A stretch of 5,755 nucleotides of DNA from the IMG/VR virus record IMGVR_UViG_2713896790_000009, one strand, 5' to 3'. A program made the position numbers and the translations under genes. Source of the DNA: a virus. Taxonomy: Duplodnaviria; Heunggongvirae; Uroviricota; Caudoviricetes. The notes beneath the pieces were generated by a model. It was not told where the DNA came from and did not search any database. It saw nothing but the letters and a program-made list of their open reading frames with translations. Every line of letters starts with the position of its first letter. Position 1 is the stretch's first letter. This document shows positions 2,049 through 5,755 of the stretch, piece by piece.

Positions 2049-4424
2049 ATGGCAGCAGTAAAAATCTCAGGTGTGCTGAAAGATGGTGCGGGAAAACCAA
2101 TACAGAACTGCACTATTCAACTGAAGGCAAAGCGTAACAGCACCACGGTACTGGTGAACACGGTGGCCTCTGAAAATCCGGATGAAGCCGGGCGTTACAG
2201 CATGGATGTTGAGTATGGTCAGTACAGCGTCACCCTGCTGGTTGAAGGTTTTCCGCCTTCACATGCCGGGACCATTACCGTCTATGAAGGTTCCAGACCA
2301 GGTACGCTGAATGATTTTCTCGGTGCCATGACGGAAGATGATGTCATGCCGGAGGCATTGCGTCGTTTTGAGGAAATGGTGGAAGAAGCGGCACGCAACG
2401 CTGAAGCCGCCTCTCAGAGCGCAGCGGCGGCAAAGAAATCCGAAACTGCAGCGGCATCATCGAAGAACGCGGCGAAAACCTCAGAAACGAATGCAGCTAA
2501 CAGCGCACAGGCGGCAGCGGCCTCGCAGACTGCATCGGCAAACTCCGCAACAGCAGCTAAAAAATCAGAAACCAACGCGAAAAATAGCGAGACAGCCGCA
2601 AAGACGAGCGAAACCAACGCAAAGTCCAGCCAGACGGCAGCGAAGACCAGCGAAACGAATGCCAAAGCCAGTGAAACTGCGGCAAAAAACAGCCAGGTTG
2701 CAGCAGCCCAAAGCGAGAGCGCGGCAGCCGGTTCTGCGACTTCAGCAGCTGGATCAGCAACTGCTACGGCTAACAGCCAGAAAGCTGCGAAGACGAGTGA
2801 AACTAACGCAAAGTCCAGCCAGACGGCAGCGAAGACCAGCGAAACGAATGCCAAAGCCAGTGAAACTGCGGCGAAAAGCAGTCAGGATGCAGCGGCTCAA
2901 AGCGAGAGTGCCGCAGCCAGTTCTGCAAGCGCGGCGGCTGCTTCTGCCACTGCATCAGCTAACAGTCAAAAAGCAGCAAAAACCAGTGAAACCAACGCAA
3001 AGGTGAGCGAAACAGCGGCAGCGAACTCAGCGAAAGCATCGGCAGCAAGCCAGACGGCAGCTAAAGCAAGCGAAGATGCAGCCAGAGAGTACGCAAGCCA
3101 GGCTGCGGAGCCGTATAAATATGTCTTACAGCCGCTGCCTGATGTGTGGATACCATTTAACGATTCGCTGGATATGATTACGGGCTTTTCGCCGTCATAT
3201 AAAAAAATTGTTATTGGTGACGATGAAATAACGATGCCTGGCGACAAGATTGTTAAGTTTAAACGTGCATCGAAAGCAACCTATATTAACAAATCTGGTG
3301 TGCTGACAGAGGCTGCCATTGACGAGCCACGATTTGAACGTGATGGCCTGCTTATTGAGGGGCAAAGAACAAACTACATGCTCAATTCGGAAAGCCCTGC
3401 CAGTTGGGGGCGATCTTCAAATATGGATGTGCCCGAAACAGGGACGGATAATTTTGGTTTTACCTATGGAAAGTTTGTCTGCAACGATTCTCTGATTGGG
3501 CAAACCTCAGCCATTAATATGGCATCAATTGCTGCAACAAAGTCAGTTGATGTCTCAGGCGATAATAAACACGTGACAACCTCATGTCGTTTTAAAACAG
3601 AACTGCAGGTAAGGTTGCGTATCCGGTTTGATAAATATGACGGTAGCGCAACAACTTTTCTTGGTGATGCGTATATTGATACACAAACGCTTGAAATTAA
3701 TATGACAGGCGGTGCTGCCTCAAGGATTACAGCGAGAGTCAGAAAGGACGAAGCTACCGGATGGATTTTTGCAGAGGCAACAATTCAGGCAATTGATGGG
3801 GAGCTAAAAATAGGCTCTCAGATACAGTATTCTCCTAAGCAGAGCGGGGCAACCGTATCTGGTGACTATATTTATCTGGCCACCCCACAAGTAGAAGATG
3901 GGCCTTGTGTATCATCTTTTATTATATCAGGAGCGACGGCGGCGACCCGCGCAAGCGATATAGTTACAGTTCCAATTAAGAATAATCTTTATAATCTTCC
4001 TTTTACGGTTCTTTGTGAGGTACATAAGAACTGGTATAAAACGCCAAATGCAGCGCCACGTGTTTTTGATACCGGCGGTCATCAAACCGGAGCGGCTATT
4101 ATTCTTGGCTTCGGTCGTTCAACAGATTACGACGGATTTCCTTATTGCGATATTGGAGGAGCTAACAGACGGGTAAACGAAAACGCATCGCTTGAAAAAA
4201 TGGTTATGGGGATGCGTGTAAAGTCAGAGCAGTCTACGTGCTCAGTAAGTAACGGGCATATATCCAGCGAAACAAAAACCACATGGTCCTGTATTCAGAA
4301 CACCGCAATTATCCGTATTGGAGGCCAGACTACAGCCGGGTTACGTCATTTATTTGGTCATGTCAGGAATTTCAGAATATGGCACAAGGCATTGACTGAT
4401 GCTCAGGTGGGGGAGTCAATCTAA
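2049..4424 (+). CDS. stf: Side tail fibre protein (Stf-like), mosaic: lambda-Stf-like N-terminal anchor, Ala/Ser/Thr/Lys-rich repetitive shaft, divergent C-terminal putative receptor-binding domain (possibly LamG/concanavalin-like jelly roll)
   Basis: ATG at 2049 with GGAG (2040-2043) upstream; the track's GTG at 2043 is a less likely start. Translation from 2049, MAAVKISGVLKDGAGKPIQNCTIQLKAKRNSTTVLVNTVASENPDEAGRYSMDVEYGQYSVTLLVEGFPPSHAGTITVYEGSRPGTLNDFLGAMTEDD, matches the lambda Stf N-terminus as I recall it. A single uninterrupted ORF ends at TAA 4422-4424. The C-terminal motif FGHVRNFRIWHKALTDAQV resembles the C-terminal strand signature of LamG-like domains; this is from memory and not verified. 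Confidence 0.85.
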   Translation: MAAVKISGVLKDGAGKPIQNCTIQLKAKRNSTTVLVNTVASENPDEAGRYSMDVEYGQYSVTLLVEGFPPSHAGTITVYEGSRPGTLNDFLGAMTEDDVMPEALRRFEEMVEEAARNAEAASQSAAAAKKSETAAASSKNAAKTSETNAANSAQAAAASQTASANSATAAKKSETNAKNSETAAKTSETNAKSSQTAAKTSETNAKASETAAKNSQVAAAQSESAAAGSATSAAGSATATANSQKAAKTSETNAKSSQTAAKTSETNAKASETAAKSSQDAAAQSESAAASSASAAAASATASANSQKAAKTSETNAKVSETAAANSAKASAASQTAAKASEDAAREYASQAAEPYKYVLQPLPDVWIPFNDSLDMITGFSPSYKKIVIGDDEITMPGDKIVKFKRASKATYINKSGVLTEAAIDEPRFERDGLLIEGQRTNYMLNSESPASWGRSSNMDVPETGTDNFGFTYGKFVCNDSLIGQTSAINMASIAATKSVDVSGDNKHVTTSCRFKTELQVRLRIRFDKYDGSATTFLGDAYIDTQTLEINMTGGAASRITARVRKDEATGWIFAEATIQAIDGELKIGSQIQYSPKQSGATVSGDYIYLATPQVEDGPCVSSFIISGATAATRASDIVTVPIKNNLYNLPFTVLCEVHKNWYKTPNAAPRVFDTGGHQTGAAIILGFGRSTDYDGFPYCDIGGANRRVNENASLEKMVMGMRVKSEQSTCSVSNGHISSETKTTWSCIQNTAIIRIGGQTTAGLRHLFGHVRNFRIWHKALTDAQVGESI
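2427..3080 (+). repeat. In-frame coding tandem repeats in the stf shaft region (about 33-bp AAKTSETNAKxSx-type sub-repeats; 189-bp tandem duplication)
   Basis: Copy 1 at about 2600-2788 and copy 2 at about 2789-2977 are offset by exactly 189 bp (63 codons), with a 68-bp perfectly identical core (2616-2683 = 2805-2872). A partial third copy starts near 2978. Encoded motif AAKTSETNAKSSQTAAKTSETNAKASETAAK recurs. Confidence 0.85.
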
Positions 4425-4705
4425 TGAAAGATTTAACACTCAAATTTGCCGACAGGGCCGACTTTTCGGCCTTTATGGATAGCACTGGCTATTATGATGA
4501 CGAGTCGATGCAGGATGATATTCTTATTGACGTGATAGGTAACGTGTACAAAGAAACCGGAGAACTGACTGAAGATGGCGAACCGGTATGTGTTAAGGAA
4601 GACGGATATTTTGTAAACGTGCGCATCATTAATGATTCGCAAATATCGTCATTATTCGATGAATACGTGGTTGCTGTTGAGCATCAACTTCGTGGCTGGA
4701 TGTGA
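4424..4705 (+). CDS. Hypothetical acidic 93-aa protein, translationally coupled to stf; candidate tail-fibre chaperone/assembly factor of unrecognised family
   Basis: ATG at 4424 overlaps the stf stop (TAATG), with GGGGGAG (4410-4416) upstream. ORF MKDLTLKFADRADFSAFMDSTGYYDDESMQDDILIDVIGNVYKETGELTEDGEPVCVKEDGYFVNVRIINDSQISSLFDEYVVAVEHQLRGWM is rich in Asp/Glu. It has no resemblance I can recognise to lambda Tfa; the function is inferred from position only. Confidence 0.6.
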   Translation: MKDLTLKFADRADFSAFMDSTGYYDDESMQDDILIDVIGNVYKETGELTEDGEPVCVKEDGYFVNVRIINDSQISSLFDEYVVAVEHQLRGWM

Positions 4706-4714
4706 GGAAGAAAA

Positions 4715-5755
4715 ATGGCTACATCGACAGTAATTCCTGATGACATCAAAACGCTAAAATCCGACGTTAGCAAATTAAAAAACGATCAAGGAAGCTACGC
4801 AACAAAATTATATGTAGACAGCAAAGATGAAATCGTTGGTGACTGGTCTGCTTCATGGTATCAGCAGGTATTGCCAACTAGCGGAGCTATATTTGGGAGA
4901 AAACTCCGCTCAACTCACAGGACGGCAGGTGTTGAGGATGCGTATTGCGAACTATACCTCAAAAAATGGATAGACAGTCCAGGTAACGCAATGGCGCGCC
5001 TTAACCTGAACGATAACGGGACAAACATTTGCTGGGACTTTACCAACCTTTATGGCGGTACGATGATTTTTCCCGGTGACAGCGGATACCTCAAAATGGG
5101 TAACTGCCTTATGTCATACAGCAAGCGTGGAAGTAACGCGCTTATTAAATTTGATTACACCGACACATTACAGATCAAATATGCCAATCATGGGTCAACC
5201 ATGACATTAAACACACAGGGAACCGCTTATGCTGGTGTTACTGCTCAATTGTGGGGCAACACCAGCCGTCCTGTTGTTTATGAAGTCGGTGTTGATGGTG
5301 GCGCTTATATGTTCTATGCGCAGAAAAATACCGATAACACCTATATGTTAAGCGTTAATGGTGCATGTCATGCCACCGCATTTAACCAGCATTCCGACCG
5401 GGATCTGAAAGACAACATTCAGGTGATCGATAATGCAACCGACCGCATCCGTAAAATGAACGGCTATACATACACGCTTAAAGAAAACGGTATGCCCTAT
5501 GCTGGTGTCATTGCACAGGAAGCTCTGGAAGCAATCCCAGAAGTTGTAGGTTCCGCAATGAAATATCAGGACGGTGCGAGCGGATCGGAAGGTGAAGAAG
5601 GTGAACGTTATTACACAGTAGATTATTCTGGTGTTACTGGCTTGCTTGTTCAGGTAGCCAGAGAGTCAGACGACAGAATAACAGCACTGGAAGAAGAAAA
5701 CGCAGAATTAAGACAAAGATTATCTGCAATTGAGGCGGCGCTTGCGTCTAAATAA
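4715..5755 (+). CDS. Tail fibre/tailspike-like protein with a C-terminal intramolecular-chaperone autoproteolytic domain (peptidase S74-like)
   Basis: ATG at 4715 with SD GAGGAAG (4704-4710); stop TAA 5753-5755. The C-terminal region HSDRDLKDNIQVIDNATDRIRKMNGYTYTL...YAGVIAQEALEAIPEVV...YYTVDYSGVTGLLVQVARE...ITALEEENAELRQRLSAIEAALASK carries the S-D-x-x-x-K-x-N-I signature with Ser227/Lys232 spacing and a terminal predicted coiled coil, as in the endosialidase and T5 L-shaped-fibre chaperone domains. The N-terminal 226 aa are unrecognised. Confidence 0.7.
   Translation: MATSTVIPDDIKTLKSDVSKLKNDQGSYATKLYVDSKDEIVGDWSASWYQQVLPTSGAIFGRKLRSTHRTAGVEDAYCELYLKKWIDSPGNAMARLNLNDNGTNICWDFTNLYGGTMIFPGDSGYLKMGNCLMSYSKRGSNALIKFDYTDTLQIKYANHGSTMTLNTQGTAYAGVTAQLWGNTSRPVVYEVGVDGGAYMFYAQKNTDNTYMLSVNGACHATAFNQHSDRDLKDNIQVIDNATDRIRKMNGYTYTLKENGMPYAGVIAQEALEAIPEVVGSAMKYQDGASGSEGEEGERYYTVDYSGVTGLLVQVARESDDRITALEEENAELRQRLSAIEAALASK

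Follow-up and report, generated by a model that had tools for sequence, protein, structure and literature searches.

Among described systems, those closest to the gene considered here are the side tail fibre protein Stf of phage lambda, the shaft of which in Ur-lambda is a proximal trimeric coiled coil (residues 102-393; PMC12617516), the lateral fibre of the T5-like phage IrisVonRoten (Bas32), and the head spike fibre Rcc01080 of the Rhodobacter capsulatus gene transfer agent (RcGTA), which binds capsular polysaccharide (PMC10218006). In IrisVonRoten, Gp22 has been presented as a proximal fibre bearing a galectin-like domain, possibly acting as an extra receptor-binding domain (RBD), to which the T-shaped Gp24 is attached in an AlphaFold-Multimer model (Humolli et al., 2025; PMC11990801). 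The present analysis addresses an stf-like side tail fibre gene found at positions 2049-4424 (791 amino acids, aa) of a 5,755-base stretch of viral DNA (IMG/VR record IMGVR_UViG_2713896790_000009), referred to in its entirety as the window. It is likely that this gene encodes the Stf of a lambda-like Escherichia coli prophage of the Tritos/HannyBb type, comprising a collar, a shaft and a lectin-like end module, and that the protein would act as a glycan-binding trimer onto which a second fibre docks. The strains to which a temperate phage can adsorb are set by the ends of its side fibres, which thereby influence how prophages spread and how lysogenic conversion proceeds in E. coli; these ends are also what is exchanged in the retargeting of lambda-based delivery particles (10.1101/2022.09.30.509847).

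The N-terminal region of the protein is clearly of the lambda type. Of its first 115 residues, 97 (84%) are identical to lambda Stf (orf-401), as are 86 of the first 100, while Pfam family PF08400 (phage_tail_N) covers aa 3-132 (E 7e-67; 223.9 bits, as compared to a cut-off of 26.6). The solved lambda Stf collar (9e7m/9mgh) aligns to aa 3-95 (E 7.5e-49), and the region is homologous to lambda Stf residues 1-94. With the domain limits taken from lambda (PMC12617516), the collar, or virion attachment, domain was assigned to aa 1-95 (positions 2049-2333, on the plus strand, as are all features given below unless stated otherwise). These some 95 residues are predicted to fix the fibre to the tail tip. 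An earlier reading of the window, made without database searches (hereafter, the sequence-only reading), had recognized the close likeness of the first 115 or so residues to lambda Stf and had taken them to mediate baseplate attachment; the attachment domain stands, whereas the baseplate does not, since lambda has a tail-tip collar.

Similarity to lambda Stf is not confined to this strongly matching region but extends, though more weakly, along the shaft (58% over 341 aa). On the basis of composition, periodicity and alignment with lambda, aa 102-355 (positions 2352-3113) were assigned as a heptad-repeat shaft of the coiled-coil type, and the region is homologous to the proximal coiled coil of lambda. 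In terms of composition, 95.8% of aa 116-355 correspond to A, S, T, K, E, N or Q, while A, L, V, I and M recur with a 7-residue periodicity (power 8.4, as compared to a maximum of 2.6 in 500 shuffles); it is from this periodicity, together with the lambda alignment, that a coiled coil is predicted. Tandem Repeats Finder detected a 189-bp tandem repeat at positions 2586-3002 (2.2 copies; 84% matches), corresponding to 63 aa or nine heptads and containing 42-bp sub-repeats, with the two 63-aa copies in the protein being identical at 56 positions. Moreover, P0003, which among the alleles in the protein database has the most members (219 sequences; 728 aa), equals the window protein less exactly one 63-aa unit, and further alleles of 685, 742 and 757 aa exist. 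The low-complexity A/S/T/K/E repeats noted earlier at about aa 120-355 are thus real, and the accompanying term 'variable repeat shaft' is literally true because of the 728-aa allele; shaft length differs between alleles by whole nine-heptad units. An antisense open reading frame (ORF) of 146 aa is also found within the repeat shaft (positions 2414-2854, minus strand), at a place equivalent to that of the annotated antisense orf206b in lambda; this ORF is in all likelihood a side effect of the GCN-rich composition of the repeat rather than a gene.

The last 436 residues (aa 356-791; positions 3114-4421), termed here the end module, are of a different kind. No similarity to lambda orf-314 was detected by BLASTP (best E 2.7), and no gp37-like match to the fibre was returned by Pfam, PHROG, PDB or fold searches; a lambda/T4 gp37-type distal tip was therefore rejected. 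In this respect, the sequence-only reading, which held that the C-terminal 435 or so residues are unlike such a tip and end in a motif reminiscent of LamG/concanavalin-like folds, is supported by both domain-wise searches and structure prediction. The motif in question, FGHVRNFRIWHKAL, falls within a weak match to the Pfam family Laminin_G_3 (module aa 380-432; E 0.0015-0.006), which is also matched by 33 of 46 homologues (E up to 0.01; best E 1.9e-11), and the module has a ConA-like beta-sandwich fold. Indeed, an AlphaFold2 model of the module, generated with 46 diverse homologues, is all-beta and lectin-like, with a mean predicted local distance difference test score (pLDDT) of 92.9 and a predicted template modelling score of 0.89.

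The C-terminal region does not correspond to a single LamG domain; the module is made up of three units. The first is a conserved junction (module aa 1-95; positions 3114-3398) bearing the pattern PLPDVW...RASxATYInKSG...EPRFE..GLLIEGQRTN, which is beta-rich in the predicted model and, across the 46 homologues, ranks with the best-conserved stretches of the module; many distant representatives match there alone. The second is a beta-sandwich domain resembling a carbohydrate-binding module (CBM) (module aa 96-272; positions 3399-3929), variable between alleles and assigned through its homology to the RcGTA head spike fibre. The third is a Laminin_G_3/pentraxin-like domain of the ConA fold (module aa 273-436; positions 3930-4421), ending in FGHVRNFRIWHKALTDAQV. 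The possibility that the two beta-sandwiches arose by tandem duplication was considered and rejected, with no sequence relationship being detected upon hhalign comparison of the respective sub-alignments (probability <1%). Module aa 1-100, 261-320 and 401-436 are well conserved among homologues, and conservation is lowest in aa 101-260 and 321-400, as expected of receptor-contact surfaces, suggesting a conserved scaffold bearing variable surfaces.

Several lines of evidence bear on what such surfaces might bind. NCBIfam NF048003 (phage head spike fiber) matches aa 435-635 of the protein with 50.5 bits, as compared to a curated cut-off of 36, and a profile built from the 46 homologues, when searched against the PDB, matches RcGTA Rcc01080 (6tb9 chain F3) with an E of 1.1e-38. 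The same profile matches the appendage at the C-terminus of Dit from Shigella phage Sf11 (E 2e-15) and E217 gp45/Pa193 gp46 (E about 1e-11), while C-reactive protein (E 0.007) is matched by its last 150 or so positions, as is an S-layer protein (E 1e-5). In Foldseek searches, the module model gave Pa193 and E217 baseplate/fibre chains as best matches (E about 1e-6). For a separate model of the middle part alone (module aa 86-279; pLDDT 96.6), the structural neighbours after Pa193 gp46 were nearly all CBMs.

Glycan binding by the module is proposed because of these fold families, the homology to a capsule-binding gene transfer agent (GTA) fibre, and the presence of the same module on lateral fibres of a class known to target O-antigen, that of T5-like phages and small siphoviruses (PMC8594841, PMC11990801). 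Were the module instead to bind a protein receptor, be it a porin such as OmpC, as lambda Stf does, or another outer-membrane protein, then its closest sequence relative with data would not be expected to bind capsular polysaccharide, nor would the neighbours of the middle domain be so largely CBMs, nor would the module be found on a class of lateral fibre known to target O-antigen; this explanation is thus considered improbable. Improbable to a still greater degree, indeed barely credible, is that the module is an enzyme, namely a glycanase or lyase of the ConA-like superfamily that cuts surface polysaccharide in the manner of a tailspike. Here, the best structural matches are to non-catalytic lectins and CBMs rather than to catalytic domains, the Pfam, NCBIfam and PHROG matches include no enzyme family, and, in our reading of the alignment, the invariant residues are found in the junction and the inter-domain segment, with no recognizable catalytic motif. 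As such, glycan binding remains the preferred reading, and it is reasonable to infer a receptor other than OmpC. It should be added that the Gifsy-1 Stf, which binds Gal II within the core of lipopolysaccharide (LPS), belongs to the lambda type, with a reported identity of 50.65% to the Stf of Ur-lambda, and therefore speaks for glycan binding by side fibres at large but not by this module.

The end module does not stand alone. Directly downstream is a translationally coupled gene encoding a 93-aa protein (positions 4424-4705), with its ATG overlapping the stop codon of the stf-like gene (TAATG), followed by a second fibre gene (positions 4715-5755; 346 aa). Among related loci for which at least 450 nt of downstream DNA were available, a homologue of the small gene begins 0-21 nt after the module in all 85 cases, these including T5-like, T1-like, Dhillonvirus and rV5-like phages; counted by lineage, the small gene accompanies the module in six groups of phages. 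The 93-aa protein corresponds to phrog_1361 (function unknown), has homologues in 181 phage records, and is 38-51% identical to its counterparts in T5-like and Dhillonvirus phages. It returned no Pfam or NCBIfam match, nor any PDB match when searched with a three-sequence profile, and shows no similarity to lambda Tfa; a downstream gene of the Tfa (lambda orf-194) type was thus rejected. The protein may be an adaptor, a cap or an assembly factor.

The 346-aa fibre is matched end to end by phrog_4563 ('tail fiber protein') and carries a C-terminal Peptidase_S74 intramolecular chaperone at aa 227-278 (PF13884; E 4.8e-14). Its N-terminal peptide, MATSTVIPDDIKTLK, is conserved in the third genes of such loci. 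More specifically, the first 16 or so residues (MATSTVIPDDIKTLKS) are kept in the third genes of T5-like, T1-like and Dhillonvirus phages while the remainder differs; in all, six lineages share the peptide, the motif of which is M[AVT]TxTxIPxDIxxLK. To judge from this conservation, the peptide looks like a docking peptide, and the 346-aa fibre is a candidate distal branch. Third genes are of two kinds: those encoding a fibre of 98-583 aa that starts with this motif, is otherwise variable and often bears an S74 chaperone, this being the kind found in the window, and those encoding a hydrophobic protein of about 97 aa. The module is probably not the outermost tip, being followed by a second fibre gene the N-terminal peptide of which is conserved. 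Given that an approximately 90-aa gene always follows it and a second fibre usually does, it probably serves both as a branch point and as an end that binds glycans. Relative to the window, the corresponding genes of PhiR46_1 are 43% (module), 98% (small protein) and 91% (second fibre) identical; identity of the small protein does not, therefore, track that of the module, pointing to recombination between module and partner.

It could be argued from these same observations that the module is mainly a structural hub that docks a downstream fibre bearing the true RBD, with the lectin-like domains never touching the host. Consistent with such a role, the junction and the last 35 or so residues are conserved across very different phages, the third gene combines a conserved N-terminus with a variable body, and the IrisVonRoten homologue, to which a T-shaped receptor-binding protein attaches, is termed a 'proximal fiber' in the AlphaFold-Multimer model (PMC11990801). 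However, the high variability of module aa 101-260 and 321-400 between alleles would be needless in a pure scaffold, and functional phages (1H12 and relatives of ev207) retain the module and small gene without any second fibre. The homology of the middle domain to a capsule-binding GTA fibre and its resemblance to CBMs also speak against a mere hub, as does the proposal of an extra RBD role in the published work on IrisVonRoten itself (PMC11990801). A purely structural role is, accordingly, deemed unlikely, although less so than either of the two alternatives considered above.

With the module being taken as both glycan-binding end and branch point, a more general arrangement can be tentatively offered, one that we presently hold to be possible but somewhat doubtful. 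In this 'socket, small partner, plug' scheme, the module, the obligate gene of about 90 aa and the gene starting with M[AVT]TxTxIPxDIxxLK would constitute one portable cassette, exchanged by temperate lambdoids and virulent coliphages of at least five groups (T5-like, T1-like, Dhillonvirus, Queuovirinae and rV5-like), with the 93-aa protein being a new adaptor or assembly factor unrelated to Tfa. If so, any fibre body bearing the plug peptide could be mounted on any anchor, with the socket itself containing two variable lectin domains.

Taken together, the fibre would be a trimer that, like that of Ur-lambda, reaches out from the tail-tip collar. Its two lectin-like domains would bind a surface glycan, be it O-antigen, LPS core or capsule, leading to fast and reversible adsorption, after which J would engage a porin. 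The junction, possibly together with the 93-aa protein, would hold the N-terminus of the 346-aa fibre, such that the resulting appendage would be branched or two-segmented. Attachment of a distal fibre to a proximal one has been modelled for IrisVonRoten and would extend to the window by homology.

A number of points weigh against this interpretation. First, the score of the window protein against Laminin_G_3 (PF13385; 17.2-19.2 bits) is lower than the gathering score of 27.6, although the family relationship is likely because of the many homologues that do match. Second, domains of the ConA-like/LamG type can bind proteins as well as sugars, so that the fold alone does not fix the ligand. Third, the predicted module structures are of monomers. 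Fourth, the 1H12, L051 and L081 loci contain the module and small gene without a second fibre, meaning that branching is not obligatory. Fifth, while Tritos (LF82 prophage 3) is a functional phage, host evidence for it consists of plaques on K-12 only (PMC9928086). Finally, a link to O16 was considered by asking whether both O16-infecting siphoviruses of the BASEL collection share a near-identical module or distal fibre; with the IrisVonRoten module and Gp24 serving as queries, JakobBernoulli was not among the close matches, and published work favours a distal Gp12-like RBD for O16.

The gene is a known and abundant allele of a known kind of protein. Full-length genes that are 98-99.5% identical are found in phages HannyBb, Tritos, PhiR63_1 and 2G7b, where they are annotated as tail fibre or tail protein, with that of Tritos being annotated as 'lambda phage stf protein homolog', and the whole protein corresponds to phrog_1419 from end to end. 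The module, over at least 80% of its length, is present in 507 of 5426 complete E. coli genomes, including that of the Crohn's-associated strain LF82. An exhaustive, profile-free search with the module returned 2059 cluster representatives with E <=1e-3; at E <=1e-10, there were 453. The module is found in 219 phage records, among them lambdoids (mEp460, 1H12, PhiR46_1 and others), and makes up the end of the lateral fibres in T5-like, T1-like, Dhillonvirus, Queuovirinae (VogelGryff) and rV5-like coliphages. In terms of identity to the window, the module is 85% identical in the Drexlerviridae phage tunus, 63% in both IrisVonRoten and the Dhillonvirus KarlBarth, 46% in the rV5-like myovirus phita32 and 37% in the T5-like AKFV33. 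On some module homologues, P2-type N-termini (PF03406/PF12571) replace the lambda-type N-terminus. Such spread over differing N-termini is ordinary tail-fibre mosaicism, and the end module has been horizontally shuffled among phages. A separate observation concerns several short or unannotated records labelled as 'Listeria phage' (OR849447.1, OR848352.1, OR847733.1) or 'Campylobacter phage' (MG0656xx), the fibre sequences of which are up to 99.7% identical to genes of T5-like or rV5-like coliphages; the host labels of these records look unreliable.

With the gene, its family, phrog_1419, and the architecture and fold of a close homologue having already been published or catalogued, the discovery is a modest one. 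The sole element that goes slightly beyond the record is the strict conservation of the three-gene cassette, which, together with the 93-aa partner, is the point that merits follow-up. To our knowledge, no earlier description exists of the generality of the cassette, of the role of the small protein or of the occurrence of the module in some 10% of complete E. coli genomes. At the same time, a tandem lectin-like end common to virulent phages offers a concrete and testable candidate both in glycan recognition and in modular retargeting.

As for the surroundings of the gene, the window corresponds to the right end of a lambdoid tail operon, with all genes on the plus strand. The C-terminal part of J (Phage_Tail_Tip and Ig_GpJ_C domains) occupies the left end and is followed by lom (positions 1467-1988; Ail_Lom domain), such that the stf-like gene is found after both. 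Two masked stretches of N, each of exactly 50 (positions 813-862 and 1907-1956), fall within J and lom, and because of this masking both ORFs look broken in the ORF list. A strong hairpin resembling an intrinsic terminator (positions 2011-2032; an 8-bp stem with seven GC pairs and a T run) is found 3' of lom, 17 nt before the stf start, and is followed by a Shine-Dalgarno-like GGAG (positions 2039-2042), the spacing of which suits the ATG at 2049 and not the GTG at 2043. Expression of stf would need read-through of this hairpin, as is expected under the antiterminated late transcription of lambda.

When the locus is set against systems in which one fibre carries another, the similarity is one of layout. 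In the T5-like DT57C (LtfA/LtfB) and in phiEco32 (gp14/gp15), an anchored fibre also bears a second fibre with its own S74 chaperone and receptor specificity (PMC4728585, PMC10713586). Yet the docking parts are unrelated, with the module matching gp14 at an E of only 0.38 and gp15 beginning MARELMPKSG..., unlike the MATSTVIPDD... of the window. DT57C LtfA, moreover, has an S74 domain of its own and no LamG-type end, and the match between its PDB chain and the window protein is confined to the low-complexity shaft (E 0.026). Assignment of the cassette to the DT57C/phiEco32 branched-fibre system was, therefore, rejected.

Proteins sharing the middle domain are found at other places in the virion. 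Rcc01080 (NF048003; 6tb9 chain F3) shares both the junction and the middle domain with the window protein but is found on the capsid rather than the tail, and has as its anchor a 10-residue N-terminal peptide, where the window protein uses a collar and coiled coil; the match spans residues 45-280 of the 325-residue chain, leaving the terminal LamG_3 part unmatched. The baseplate proteins Pa193 gp46/E217 gp45 of PB1-like Pseudomonas myophages and the appendage of the Dit protein (gp17) of the siphophage Sf11 likewise differ in placement, being on baseplate or Dit proteins and not at a fibre end. In Sf11, it is residues 217-406 (PDB 9occ chain C) that are homologous to the middle domain of the module (profile E 2e-15). 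While the function of this large C-terminal appendage is explicitly described as unknown (PMC12724387), the homology suggests a putative carbohydrate-binding role.

With lambda (Ur-lambda) Stf, the window protein shares its position after J and lom, its collar and its Ala/Ser/Thr-rich shaft; by contrast, the lambda hinge, gp37-like six-chain coiled coil, OmpC-binding tip (the orf-314 part) and Tfa are absent, and a CBM-like and LamG-like module, a gene for a 93-aa partner and a second fibre gene are found instead. In IrisVonRoten, which infects O16-bearing K-12, the anchor is of the T5 type (LtfC-dependent) rather than of the lambda type, and the distal fibre, at 574 aa, T-shaped and with a Gp12-like RBD, is larger than the 346-aa protein of the window. 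The latter aligns with Gp24 solely in two stretches, one being the extreme N-terminus and the other running from about aa 49 as far as the C-terminus, and lacks the approximately 220-aa N-proximal insert of Gp24. Beyond these differences, all three parts of the IrisVonRoten arrangement are present in the window: the end module, shared with Gp22; a gene of about 92 aa after it, with Gp23 being 38% identical to the 93-aa protein; and a third gene that, like that encoding Gp24, pairs the same N-terminal peptide (MVTKTVIPTDITKLK in Gp24, as compared to MATSTVIPDDIKTLK in the window) with a C-terminal S74 chaperone.

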